Assembly (NCBI RefSeq): GCF_035594765.1
Contig: NW_026943824.1
Coordinates: 9,743,451-9,807,450 of the forward strand
From: Anolis carolinensis
Lineage: Eukaryota
Reading direction: 5' to 3'
DNA length: 64,000 nucleotides
The stretch's first letter is position 1; each line of letters opens with the position of its first letter. Positions 42,972 to 63,564 of the stretch are shown piece by piece. The notes below the pieces were generated by a model. The model saw nothing but the letters and a program-made list of their open reading frames with translations. It did no database searches and was not told the origin of the DNA. A program made the position numbers and the translations under genes.

Positions 42972-43839
42972 TGTCAAAACCCAGGCTACGGAGCACCAAT
43001 AACCATGCGCAGAGGCCAGATACTATTTAATATCTTTATTAAAGGAATATATAAAGTCAATAAAAACAAGTGAAGAATGAAGTTCAGAAGTAGACCTTTC
43101 AGGAAAGGTCAAATATAGTCCAGAAAAGCAATGTCCAATATGTGATATTAGAGTCCAAAGTTATAATCCAATAACCGAAACACACACTTTGCCAAGCAAA
43201 GTGTGGGGAAATGACAAGGTCCTTTAGTCCAATGGAGCTTGACAACAAGGCTGGAAAACAAACTAGATTCTTGGCAAACAAGACTTGATACGAGGCAACA
43301 AGAAGCAAGAAGCAAGAACAAGGTCCGTGGCGAGGTCCGAAGAACAAGGCAGGCTTGGAACTAGAACAAGGTCCTGGAAACAAGGAACTGGAGTTGCGTA
43401 GTCCACACACGATCTCACTCCCGAAGCTGACGAATTGACTCCGCAAGGATCTCCTTGCGGTAAAACAGCTATATAGGATCTTGTTTTCCCGCCAAGGAAC
43501 ACTTTCCCTGGGGAACAAGAAGTGAAACCCAAGCTGTGTCCAGATGCATGACTCCTTAAGATTTCCCAAGGGAAACAGGCTTAATCAGCTAATTGTCTGG
43601 CAGCGATTCTGGTGCTTCGGCGATTCGCCTCCCTAGCGCCTCTATCTCGATTATAATTATCCCGGCGAGAGAACGGGGGAGAATTCTGCCCAAGGCTTGT
43701 TTGGCTGACTTCTTGAGGGCAAACATCCTGCAGGTGCAGGGGCTCCGATTCTGGCTGAATCGGTGGGAAACCAAAGTTTTCCTCTTCGTCTGCCACAATA
43801 GTACTAGGAACGGGACTACATGGCCCATGAGACATCACA
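42972..43839 (-). repeat. 3' LTR
   Basis: Direct repeat of 47784-48651, preceded by the PPT on the minus strand. Confidence 0.97.
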
Positions 43840-49887: not shown

Positions 49888-50622
49888 GTTTATTTATATC
49901 CCCCCTCCATCTCCCCCGAAGGGGACTCGGGGCGGCTTACAGCAAAATCAAAATACAAACAATGATAAAATATAAAACATCAGGCCAAAAACAAAAACCA
50001 ATAAAAAATATACACAATAAGTTAAAAAACACAACGCAGAATTAAAACATCAGGTTAAAAACAATGAGGTTGCAATAGTGGATAAGCAAAGTGTACGGTG
50101 CACATTATGGGTAACAAATTCATAAATAGATAAAGTGCATTAGAATCATTTAAGGTCACATTAGGTACGGTAGGGAGGAGTCCTGAGTAATATCAATCAA
50201 TCAGGAATCGGGAAGAGCGACCAGTGCAAAAGGTCGATTGTGATGGAAAAAAGATGATCTTAACCAAAGGCCTGAGTGAAAAGCCAAGTTTTCAGACTCT
50301 TCCGAAATGCCATCAAGGTGGGGGCTTGCCTGATCTCCCTAGGCAGCGAATTCCACAACCGGGGGGCCACTACAGAGAAGGCCCTGTCCCTCGTCCCCAC
50401 CAACCGCGCTTGCGATGCTGGCGGAAGCGAGAGGAGGGCCTCCCTCGATGACCGAAGAGACCGTACAGGTTCGTAGGGGGAGAGACGATCCCGAAGGTAG
50501 ATGGGTCCCAAACCGTTTTGAGCTTTATAGGTGATCACCAGCACTTTGAATTGGGTCCGGAAAATAAGCGGCAGCCAGTGGAGCTCCTTAAACATGAGGG
50601 TTGACCGCTCTCTGTGAGCGGT
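49821..50622 (-). mobile_element. L2 3' fragment with (AAT)n tract
   Basis: KELHWLP..FKVLVITYK..RAFSVVAPRLWNSLP in ORF 50260-50745(-); (AAT)n at 49821-49887. Confidence 0.9.
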
Positions 50623-51427
50623 CTTGATTCTGTGAGCTATGTTTTCTTTGGAACACTCCACTGTATATAATCTTGGAGACCTATTGCAATCTACTTTGAC
50701 AGTAGGTCTATTGATGTGGTCTGTGAAATAGATGGCTGATTGCACTTTCAGGAAAGGCTTGCAGAACCAGGCATGTTTTCAAGAAATGTCTGCATTTGTT
50801 GGAGCATGTCTAACTTCTAAGACAAGTGTATTTCATACAAGGCTGAAAGCTATGGAGATTGGGCCCAGGTTAACCATTGCCATAAACAGTTTCAAACCAG
50901 GGATTGGAGTTAAATGCTCTATTGACTGTACCATACAACATTACACATTTCTTGACATTACCAAGGGTGTTTCTTTAAAAGCCAGCACCCATAACACATT
51001 TCTTTTTTGCCAAATGTCTGAGCTTTGAGCCCTTTCCCTCCTCTCTCCTTGTAGCTGACATTACCATGTTTTTGCATCCTACATTTTTGAGTCCTTTTTC
51101 TTGTGGTTCAAGATACCTTCTCTCGAAGCACGCCAACCCTTGCCTCTTTTTATGGGATCGCTGTGCGCTCTCTTACAGCTGTCTACTGCACTAATAAAGA
51201 AGATGTTTGTGGCCATGACCTACCTGAACCATTATACGCTAATCATATTGAGCAATTGCAAGCAGATTGATTAAATGCCACGGATCTCCCTTGAGGACCA
51301 GCGAGACCACAATCCTCGGCTCACCACCCCTTAACAGATGGCATGATAATGTTTTTTAACAGCACACTGAAGGGAGCAGGTGGCTAAGAGCCATTAGGGG
51401 AAGGCTGTTTCTGAGACCAGCGAACTA

Positions 51428-59754: not shown

Positions 59755-60583
59755 TAATAATAATAATAACTTTATTCTTATACCCTGCCCCATCTCCCCG
59801 AAGGGACTTGGGGCGGCTTACATGGGGCCAAGCCCGGAACAACAATATAAAAACAAAAGCAAACAGTAAAAACAAATCAATCAACAATAAAACATCAAAC
59901 AACGATAAAAACAGTCATAAAAGTCACATACAAAAGAAAATCTTAAAATCCCAACGATCTGGGTCAAGGTGCAAAATATGTCGATGTCAACGGGGAGGGG
60001 AGATTACCCAGCTGTCATAGTCAATTACAGTGCAATTATAATACTGGGGAAGGCATACCTGAGGGTCTAATACTGAGTAGGCAAACAGGTCAATCCCACA
60101 GGGATCAGTCATCAAAGGCCTTCTGGAAGAGCCAGGTTTTCAGCCTCCTCCGAAAGGAGAGGAGGGTAGGGGCCTGCCTGATCTCCCTGGGGAGGGAGTT
60201 CCAAAGCTGGGGGGCCACGATGGAGAAGGCCCTCTCCCTCGTCCCCACCAACCGCGACTGTGAGGGTGGTGGGAGCGAGAGGAGGGCCTGCCCGACGAGC
60301 GAAGAGATTGTGCGCGTTCATAGGGGGAAATGCGGTCTCGAAGGTAGGTGGGTCCCAAACCGCTTAGGGCTTTGTAGGTAATGACCTGCACCTTGAATTG
60401 GGCCTGGAAGATAAACGGCAGCCAATGGAGCTCCTTAAACAGTGGCGTTGAACGCGCCCTGTAATTTTCTCCAGTTAGAAACCTGGCTGTCGAGCGTTGT
60501 ACTAATTGTAATTTCCAAGCCGTCTTCAAAGGCAGCCCCACATAGAGCGCATTGCAATAATCCAGTCTAGAGGTAACTAAGGC
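59755..60583 (-). mobile_element. L2 3' fragment
   Basis: GLPLKTAWKLQLVQ..KELHWLP..FKVQVITYKAL in ORF 60140-60541(-). Confidence 0.9.
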
Positions 60584-61299
60584 CTTTTATTTTATCACAA
60601 GTATAATTTCATGTTCCTACAGTGTGGCAGTTCAGTCACACCACTAATTTATCCACTTGTTATCCTTGGGAGGCAGGGTGCATTCAAATACAGTACTTGT
60701 CTATTCTCTGACAAGGCCACGTAAAACAAATATCTGTTTTTGTATCCTATCTGATGCAATTTACAATCATTGTTTCCACTGCAGGTTTGCTCCCTTGCCC
60801 ATCAGCAAACACACATTCTATAAATTTCCCCCATATTTTCCAAAGATCATTTAATTTACAAATTCCTTTTTAGTCTTAATGACCGCATGTCATTTTATCA
60901 TTTATTGCTATTTTCCATACTTCTTTGTACCAATCTTCTAACTGAATCCTGCAAGGCATTGCCAAAAAGCCAATGCATCTATTTTAAATATGTGAATAGT
61001 TAACATTCACACACTTGGTGAAAGAGCACCACTATGCTTTAGTTGATGTGGAAAGACTGTGTGAGTTAGGTAAACTGTGCAAATAATTTAGCGCATTAGG
61101 AAAATGTGTAGAAAAGGAGTGCGATTTTCATTACAAGAGGAAAATGCCATGTCTCTCAACTTAACACAAAACAAGGATGGGTTGAAAATACAGGTGCAAT
61201 TCAGAGAAACTCAGTGAGATCCAAACTGAGAAAATTTCATCTTCCTGCTAAATAGTTATGAAAGCACCCAAATCTACAGGTTGGAAAGCAGCCCAAATC

Positions 61300-63564
61300 T
61301 GTTGTCGACCGCGTTTCTAGGGGATCGGGCCCCTTAAGGAGAGAGCCGATCCGGTCCTGAGAGAACGGACCTTGGCGGAGCCAATAGGAGAATATGAGCC
61401 GCAATACAACCTGGAACCGAAATGAAGAAGGTCCGCCAAAGATGAAGGAAAATCCGCCAAGGAGTCTTTATTGAGCGATTCAGCTGAAAAGGACACTAGT
61501 AGCGATCATTCAGTCTACTAGCGTATCATACATTCAAAATAAAGCCATATTTATACAATGTTTCGGTCTGACAGCCCTTTGAATTTCCCGCCCCGCTCCC
61601 CCGCCCATCTGATCGCGGATAGGCTAGAAGGCTGAACGAGGCGGGCTTTCGTTTCCCGCCTTGCTCTGCTGGTCCAATGGGGAGCCGCTTTTTGTCCCCA
61701 CTCGGGCCAATCAGAGAGGAGGAGCTATTGAAACAATGAAGTGCCAGGGCAGGAAATATCAGATTTACTCCTGCCAGACCGATTTCTAAAGGAATTAATG
61801 GCACCCATCAAGGATGTCCGGGTTCCTGTCACGTTCACAGATTTTAGATATGCCTTGGGGTGTCAGAGGGGAAGTGGTGATGGGTGTTGATGAGCCAAAA
61901 TTGACAGGCTCCACAGGGCGCCTTCCTGAGGTGTCCTGGAATTTCCTGGGATATGACAATGTTTGCTCTGGGGGCTGAATCACCTTTAGGACTATACTCC
62001 GAATTTGGTGACTCAAGCCTTATATTGTCCATGGAATCTGAATTAGATTGGGTTAAGCTGTGGCAGATTATCCTTTTGTTTTTTTGGGAAAGGAAGCCTG
62101 GGTCATAGGAGCAGGGGTTCATGTTGGGGTCAAAATATTTCCCATTTGATTTCATGATTTGACAATTATATGAAATAGAATGAAAATTAAAATAAAGTTG
62201 GAACATAAACCCAGCTGGGAAAAACACATATTTTCCGGGGATCCCAAAGAGTACAAATACATATAGGCAGATAGATAGATTTCAAGGAAGCAAGGGAGAA
62301 TCCATAAAGGTGGGTTACATTGCATAAAGGGGAATCATGAATGATATAAACAATTGAAAACATTTGATAAGAACGAAGTTCACAACATCTGGGGAACCCA
62401 ATATGGAAAGTCATAGGAGTGGAGTTCTAGCAGCATGATTTCACAATTCATGAAGTTAGCCCAACGATTAGAAATTCATACAACAGTGAGTCATGAGGGT
62501 GTCCAGGTACGTAGAATATGAAAATTCACGGATACATGAGGAAAAAGAGTTCATCTGTGATGGAAGGAATTCATAGAGATGGCATGGGGAAGGGGCACAT
62601 GTGGGTTGCAGTCTTGGGAAGTATAAGATTTCATAAGTCCAGGGATAGGTCTGGGGAAGAGTGTTCTTCTCCTTCATAAAATTATTAAGGTATGAATGAA
62701 ACGTGGAGGGCGCCCGTCCGGGCACCCCCTGGCAGCTGTAGAGAGGGTGAGGGTCCTTGGAGAACTATGTCTCCCCAGCGAGAGAGCGATCCCCCCATCC
62801 CCAGTTCACAGAAAGGGGCTAGGGATCTCTTAAAACCATTCCGCGGGTCGCGGGGAGAGGAAAGTCCGGGATAAGGCAGCAGTTTGGCTTGAAAGGAGCA
62901 GTCGGTCCCGTTTGACAGTCAGCTGTTGAGGTGCCGAGAACTGGACCGATTTCGGTTCCGCTGGTGGTCCTTGAGTCAGGGGTCTTAAAAAGGGTTAGGA
63001 CTAAAAGATGAGTGTGCTAGGGGTAATTTTGATAAAGATATGAGCCAATTTGTACCGTCCGCCGTATTAACCTATGGCGGAGAAGCCTCCGCCAGGGTTT
63101 TAAAGATCAGACGGGTTAGTGAGAGAGAGAGAGAGAAATTACATGCAAAGGAAGGAGTCAGAGAATGACACAAAATAACCAGATAGAGAGTGTTACTGTT
63201 AAAATAAATGCTACTTTTATTGGGGGATTTGTTACATAGTGCAGGGAAGGGGAAAGTGAAGAAAAAAAATCTTTTAATAATAGTCTGCTGCGGTCCCGTT
63301 CCGTTCCCTTTTGGTGAGTGATCTGCGGAACTCTCCGCTGCGAGTTCAAATTAATTTAAAAGCCGGGGTTTCGGTCATCAAATCCACACTAACATCTTCT
63401 CGGCAAGACTTTTTAAAACCTGCAATTATTCAAGAACGTTGTACACTGCTAAGTATCAAAAGTTTCAAAACAGAACTCAGAGTTAGCCAAGGTTTCTGTT
63501 ATGGGCGTCTGAGGGGAATTGCTATTTTAACTTTTCAATTCGAAAGCCTGAGCTCAGCTGAATA
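61300..63564 (-). mobile_element. Putative very long solo LTR of an endogenous retrovirus
   Basis: 4-bp TSD AATC (61296-61299, 63565-63568); ends TGTT...AATA (one mismatch from AACA); on the minus strand CCAAT/GC boxes, TATAAA (~61555), AATAAA (~61472) and terminal CGACAACA; CpG-rich compared with the flanks. Confidence 0.7.

Follow-up and report, generated by a model that had tools for sequence, protein, structure and literature searches.

A solo LTR of about 2 kb in Anolis carolinensis and its young family of endogenous retroviruses with a gamma-like pol, an ASLV-type env and a long U3 without a conserved gene

The solo LTR and its limits

The window analysed here is a stretch of 64,000 nucleotides of the Anolis carolinensis genome (contig NW_026943824.1, positions 9,743,451 to 9,807,450 of the forward strand), which carries close to its right end a solo long terminal repeat (LTR) read from the minus strand (Table 1). 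Other retroelements share the window. A full-length Gypsy LTR retrotransposon of the chromovirus type lies at 42972 to ~48100 (minus strand), with frameshifted gag, protease, RT, RNase H, integrase and chromodomain, and a very recent insertion is indicated by the identity of its two LTRs over 300 nt or more. A LINE-type RT is represented by two 3′ relics, at 50260–50778 and 60140–60586 (minus strand), which gave no Pfam match and are presumably L2-like.

The original prediction described at this place a solo-LTR-like element of 2265 bp, bounded by a target site duplication (TSD) and ending at 63564. A solo LTR with TG...CA ends, an AATC duplication and unique flanks does exist here, but its right end had been misplaced and its actual length is 2,081 bp, as found from genome matches, from the end-by-end comparison of copies and from contig depth. 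A genome search with the 2265-bp stretch returned 41 matches including the query itself; 39 of the 40 others listed end at query positions 2081–2099 (one of these begins at 225), and the remaining one is a piece covering 1–233. Moreover, an exact 4-bp TSD was seen in 24 of the 32 LTRs examined, the other eight adjoining internal sequence. In DNA contigs from four studies the depth beyond ~63380 is that of single-copy sequence and the junction at 63380 is bridged in all four, both junctions of the element being bridged in three. An end at 63564 is thus excluded by the ends of the genome matches, by the AATC duplication and by contig depth, and the error can be traced to a 7-mer shared by chance between 61295 and 63564, which occurs 10 times within the window. 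The empty site that had been proposed was equally wrong, since it relied on the misplaced end; a true one would join 61299 to 63385. No such joint skipping the element was seen in the four DNA contig sets, which can show presence and not absence. Two short LTRs around an internal region, or a set of nested repeats, were also looked for and are excluded, as the element has no self-match and no internal duplication, and an expansion of the U3 by tandem repeats is excluded by the lack of any TRF array in the LTR.

Table 1. Features of the solo LTR and its surroundings (window positions)
Feature	Position	Strand	Basis
Solo LTR, 2,081 bp, TG...CA ends	61300..63380	-	genome matches, end comparison, DNA contigs
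TSD, left copy, AATC	61296..61299		end comparison
TSD, right copy, AATC	63381..63384		end comparison
Unique host flank, included in error in the original prediction	63385..63564		genome matches, contig depth
Distal U3 module, 922 nt, non-coding	62459..63380	-	missing from the 1.32-kb sister LTR; frameshifts
Proximal U3, common to long and short LTR types; U3/R border predicted	61530..62458	-	LTR comparison
Predicted U3 RNA stem-loop, 8-bp stem, loop of ~8–24 nt among copies	61977..62014	-	folding, z −3.5
Core promoter motifs: CCAAT (two), GC box (two), TATAAA	61550..61711	-	motifs
Predicted R region, AATAAA at 61472–61467	61450..61529	-	motif positions; borders inferred
Predicted U5	61300..61449	-	two-LTR copies: 5 nt, then the tRNA-Arg(UCG) PBS

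The anatomy of the promoter end agrees with what had been predicted, namely a promoter, a polyA signal and a U5-like end within the last ~450 nt of the minus strand: two CCAAT boxes (61711 and 61678), two GC boxes (61606 and 61593), a TATAAA (61555), an AATAAA (61472) and the CA end at 61300 follow each other within ~410 nt. The borders of promoter, R and U5 are those predicted from motifs, and from the TATA and polyA positions and the corrected length a U3 of ~1.85 kb is predicted, so that the very long U3 first proposed holds, if not quite at its ~2 kb. Among 17 LTRs compared, positions 1701–1900 of the LTR are nearly gap-free and belong to the least variable bins. An additional AATAAA is found far upstream of R, at 63221–63216 (minus strand; LTR position 160), in all 12 variants printed for the 17 LTRs.

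Proviruses of the family and the parent of the window copy

The first paired copies of the LTR enclose 3.7-kb interiors that lack a long ORF and keep only a relic of gag MA together with the final parts of pol and env. A search with the gag relic led to many loci with open frames of 681–696 codons, eight of which were fetched, and in all eight the LTRs flank a gag-pro-pol-env provirus, in line with the squamate ERV that had been predicted. These proviruses are ~11.9 kb long, with LTRs of 1,921–2,041 bp; every one of them has an open gag and an LTR-PBS junction, and six have an open pro-pol of 1,249 codons. The seven measurable LTR pairs differ by 9, 4, 2, 0, 0, 0 (with one gap) and 2 nt, and five of the seven measured proviruses show an exact 4-bp TSD, the 3′ LTR of the eighth being interrupted by another element. 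As 418 or more of the 431 env codons are open in at least 65 of the 101 matches to env, the term relic used in the original prediction undersells the family. Tandem proviral arrays sharing LTRs, both non-autonomous and env-bearing, were also observed (L080, L097/L102, L142–L145 and L155/L156). A protein match of 94% agrees with Anolis carolinensis as the host.

The domains recognised by Pfam in the proviruses comprise Gag_p30, zf-CCHC, RVP, RVT_1, RNase_H, rve, MLVIN_C and TLV_coat. Among PDB entries the RT is nearest to that of XMRV/MLV (E 2e-201), that of foamy virus following at 2e-47, and the best database relatives of pol among the matches listed are ERV pols from birds, crocodilians and lizards (up to 61%); no named reference virus appears among the 120 RT matches listed. 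With a Gag p30, an MLV-type integrase C-terminus and a 4-bp TSD, the family can be classed as a class I gamma-like ERV (ERV1), an assignment made by PDB and Pfam scores and not by a tree with named references. The gamma-like integrase suggested by the length of the TSD is therefore in agreement with the RT, and the spuma-like option falls, since the RT is far nearer to MLV than to foamy virus and gag and pol share a frame; spumavirus-like traits (a spuma-type RT, a pol apart from gag, bel/tas ORFs) are absent from the eight proviruses. In all of them gag and pro-pol are separated by a single in-frame UGA. This stop is followed by CUAG in each case (loci L116–L130), which we take to be a leaky-stop context, unlike the UAG of MLV.

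The primer binding site (PBS) matches the host tRNA-Arg(UCG), and ERV9 also has an Arg PBS. A bulged variant that is not an exact tRNA match (for example L031:6334–6353, minus strand) was found in 80 of 96 sampled sites, a sample in which overlapping loci count more than once, and it occurs in intact and defective copies alike. Reverse transcription should restore such a PBS to the sequence of the tRNA, but a search for tRNA-like genes that match the bulge gave none.

The env encodes 431 aa of the ASLV type. Its TM is nearest to that of ASLV (3e-13 among PDB entries, the next at 1e-5), and its short SU can be aligned with ALV env at either end, the N- and C-terminal segments being ASLV-like, as is proper to alpharetrovirus-like envs; the Pfam match to Avian_gp85 reaches only E 0.001, below its cut-off. 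A rabbit protein named 'syncytin-2 isoform X2' (P0007) shows 37% identity to this env over 77% of the length. In most open copies env continues directly into the 3′ LTR, its end overlapping the polypurine tract (PPT) and the opening 32 nt of the LTR, so that the start of the distal U3 module carries the last env codons in full proviruses. Such an arrangement leaves no space for a gene between env and the 3′ LTR, and no extra ORF was found there in the open copies.

The LTRs of the family come in two types. A sister LTR of 1.32 kb keeps the proximal 1,159 nt and has the distal 922 nt replaced by 166 unrelated nt; it has a purine tract of its own and is a recombinant type. Counts of exact patterns, all of which are lower bounds, gave 718 starts of the short type versus 363 of the long type, about twice as many, along with 307 exact LTR-PBS junctions. 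Short-type LTRs sit on elements with relics of gag and pol only, and the long type was found in 30 of 30 env-bearing loci examined. No source for the distal 922 nt or for the 166-nt start was seen in the loci examined, and all 20 loci fetched with the 166-nt piece contain the same short LTR. The 3′ interior of the short-LTR elements (L079:3500–6170) holds a pol relic only ~42% like the pol of the family and again its own purine tract. Such an arrangement suggests that they recombined with another ERV, of which no intact form was found.

The LTR of the window is 98.7% like those of non-autonomous elements and ~90% like the intact ones, eight intact proviruses having been compared, so that an intact copy nearer to it could exist. 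In a tree of the 3′ parts of 49 LTRs, from which one intact copy lacking the anchor motif was left out, the window copy falls in a clade (support 100/98) of solo, non-autonomous and short-type LTRs that contains no intact provirus. From the composition of this clade, we infer that the parent of the window copy was probably a gene-less element of ~7.9 kb, later cut down to a single LTR by LTR-LTR recombination.

Coding content and possible roles of the U3

Because long U3s are known from complex retroviruses, the original prediction had envisaged such a virus, with an accessory gene in the U3 comparable to sag of MMTV, bel of foamy viruses or nef of lentiviruses. The length of the LTR itself speaks for this reading, and chance ORFs of 85–211 codons do occur in single U3s, but they differ from copy to copy and none is common to the family. 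When seven intact proviruses were compared with one reference copy, 115 of 129 U3 indels shifted the frame, whereas of 5 indels in gag none did so, and five pols showed none; the multiple alignment gave 53 frameshifting runs among 62 distinct U3 gap runs. Only a few dozen bases separate one U3 frameshift from the next in proviruses whose LTRs are identical and whose genes are open. In eight of eight copies, none of the six frames is open across the longest U3 stretch free of frameshifts (184 nt). By comparison, pN/pS is 0.23 in gag (5 copies), 0.10 in pol (6) and 0.08 in env (18), as calculated for copies of modal length. Pfam gave no match at E<=1 for four U3 ORFs of the window and none at E<=0.1 for a 211-codon U3 ORF of another copy, and the ESM Atlas gave no usable match for U3 ORFs. 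A HMMER search of 1.84 billion proteins returned a single match to a U3 ORF (P0137), rejected as a homologue because it is a tandem repeat of 53 aa that owes its score to the sum of eight weak stretches. Some U3 stretches of 84–146 nt are open in certain frames in eight of eight copies, a few of them with a pN/pS of 0.33–0.38 based on few changes, so that a small spliced exon is conceivable; four sets of contigs, taken by guess to be RNA, contained no env or U3 splice joint, although contigs cannot show absence. Taken together, an accessory protein in the U3 appears very improbable, and the U3 is likely regulatory sequence without a conserved gene in a virus that is simple and not complex. Its substitution divergence, fairly even and not above the synonymous one, points neither to strong constraint nor clearly to neutrality.

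A candidate for such a regulatory role is the stem-loop predicted in the middle of the U3, in which all stem pairs are formed in 16 of the 17 LTRs, a diverse set, with loops of 8 to 23 nt, the sense strand giving the better fold (z −3.5, against −1.9). A second hairpin, at 63074–63093 (z −3.4 in this copy), was dropped, its stem being broken in 8 of the 17 LTRs. Among the eight stem pairs of the retained one, as followed in 16 rows drawn from a motif-selected set, none changes on both sides, three vary on one side and only to G-U, and four never vary; shuffles give the hairpin no support on this account, and its function is thus putative. We interpret it as probably serving as an RNA signal within the viral 3′ UTR of ~1.9 kb. 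In non-autonomous elements another copy of this hairpin takes the place of ~45 nt of gag MA (L006:630–685, minus strand, and other such copies), and the identical loop-length variants found at the U3 and gag MA positions suggest repeated template switching. Rfam gave no match at E<=1.

The explanation that we consider highly probable is that of a young ERV with a gamma-type pol and an ASLV-type env, the ~2-kb LTR of which is non-coding, with a non-autonomous parent for the window copy and a likely regulatory U3. Intact proviruses would supply the proteins that copy the gene-less elements in trans, a copying presumably primed by tRNA-Arg, and the proximal ~410 nt of the LTR would serve as promoter and polyA unit. 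The mid-U3 stem-loop likely acts in the viral 3′ UTR, through export, stability or packaging. The distal module, on the other hand, would be dispensable in cis, given that short LTRs lacking its 922 nt were copied, and it is likely kept in env-bearing copies partly through its physical tie to env and the PPT, an overlap that may suffice to explain why all 30 env loci have the long type.

It could be argued instead that the distal and middle U3 are a decayed passenger, captured from the host or from another retroelement, with only the last few hundred bases of the LTR being functional. The many indels tolerated by the U3, including deletions of 51 and 73 nt, the wide spread of the variant without the distal module and the protein-like look, by eye, of some translated stretches would suit such an origin. 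However, searches of the loci examined, of Rfam and of protein libraries gave no source for it, and a passenger of this kind fits poorly with a hairpin stem kept paired around a variable loop and with ~930 nt of proximal U3 kept, small deletions aside, in both LTR types; we regard it as unlikely, if still deserving consideration. A rather more doubtful proposal is that the U3 is also a second transcription unit, producing a family-wide non-coding RNA, possibly antisense, as with the U3 RNAs of ERV9 LTR12. In three of the four presumed RNA runs, the summed depth of contigs at ~200–1450 of the LTR, in the distal and middle U3, is about 10–40 times that at ~1450–2040, a drop not accounted for by local divergence, DNA runs being deepest at the promoter end (with another reference and threshold), and the opposite strand has AATAAA motifs at 62191 and 63203. 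The fourth run, however, lacks the contrast, the RNA label is a guess, and contigs can show neither level nor strand, start nor end, so that the distal-U3 RNA signal is only a lead; moreover, intronic read-through could yield U3 RNA, as reported for LTR12 (PMC11853044). Improbable too, in our opinion, would be a retrovirus made complex by RNA, combining an ORF-free U3 of 1.85 kb, an RNA element duplicated into gag by its parasites and a second non-coding transcript, which if true would represent a class of ERVs with giant LTRs overlooked by standard LTR finders.

Known relatives and meaning of the family

Reptiles are already known to carry widely ERVs that combine a gamma-type pol with an alpharetrovirus-like env (PMC13568524), and the 2026 supplement of that work has env rows for Anolis carolinensis, with the label 'Mab4', whose positions fall on the env ORFs of this family. 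The ERV is hence uncharacterised only in part, its env having been printed there as the tip of a tree. Neither 'Anolis' nor 'anole' occurs in the main text, and the parts of PMC13568524 consulted describe neither the anole provirus nor its LTR. No description of the 2-kb LTR was found in the literature covered, which included parts of PMC5753468 and PMC9967133; Repbase and Dfam lie beyond that coverage and may well hold it. A gamma-like pol with a short ASLV-type env is shared with the ERVs carrying Mab-Env3/4 and CHIRalphaEnv (PMC13568524), the likeness to Mab-Env4 being a label from supplement rows and not a direct sequence comparison; Mab-Env3/4 are described as alpharetrovirus-like envs with a minimal SU (bioRxiv 10.1101/2021.11.05.467493). 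The bat elements given in PMC13568524, in contrast, have LTRs of 161–690 nt, compared with ~2 kb in the anole. In the same host, Acar.ERVi.1a/1b (PMC10435555) are likewise young class I-type ERVs, but they belong to another family of 8.3 kb with a visibly different RT.

Regarding the LTR, a long non-coding U3 with CCAAT boxes is shared with HERV9/LTR12 of class I, where LTR12 exceeds 1,300 bp through 41-bp tandem repeats, has an optional 5′ extension in some subfamilies and makes U3-derived RNAs (PMC11853044), for which the anole LTR offers an RNA lead only. Unlike LTR12, the anole LTR has no internal repeats, is longer and is paired with an ASLV-type env; expansion of the U3 by CCAAT-bearing tandem repeats of the LTR12 kind was not found in the window LTR. 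The MER52-type LTRs of ERV1, of which MER52D is ~2 kb, are ancient human relics, unlike the young anole family with its open genes, and are set beside the anole LTR, as long class I LTRs, by description only. One MER52A solo LTR measures 1,573 bp (PMC11007075, Table 1). MMTV, foamy viruses and lentiviruses share with this family a long U3 and an env that ends near or inside the 3′ LTR, but the anole elements differ from them in having a gamma-like RT and no conserved U3 ORF.

What is new is therefore a non-coding LTR of ~2 kb on a simple, recently active ERV with a gamma-type pol and an alpha-type env, the listing of the env being already known. This LTR is about four times as long as the mean of 521 bp in a gamma LTR training set (PMC3601003). 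The default maximum LTR length of LTRharvest is 1,000 bp (PMC2253517, Table 1), and a survey of ERVs with identical LTRs in 2,004 genomes names, in the sections at hand, only '-similar 100' and no setting for LTR length, its supplements listing a different anole family (PMC10435555). Given this default and these settings, families of ERVs with giant LTRs are likely under-counted, the older assembly used in the survey being another possible cause. The rule of thumb by which a very long U3 means an accessory gene is broken here by a simple gamma-like ERV with young, gene-open copies, and its natural long and short LTR variants provide a ready comparison for the role of the distal U3.
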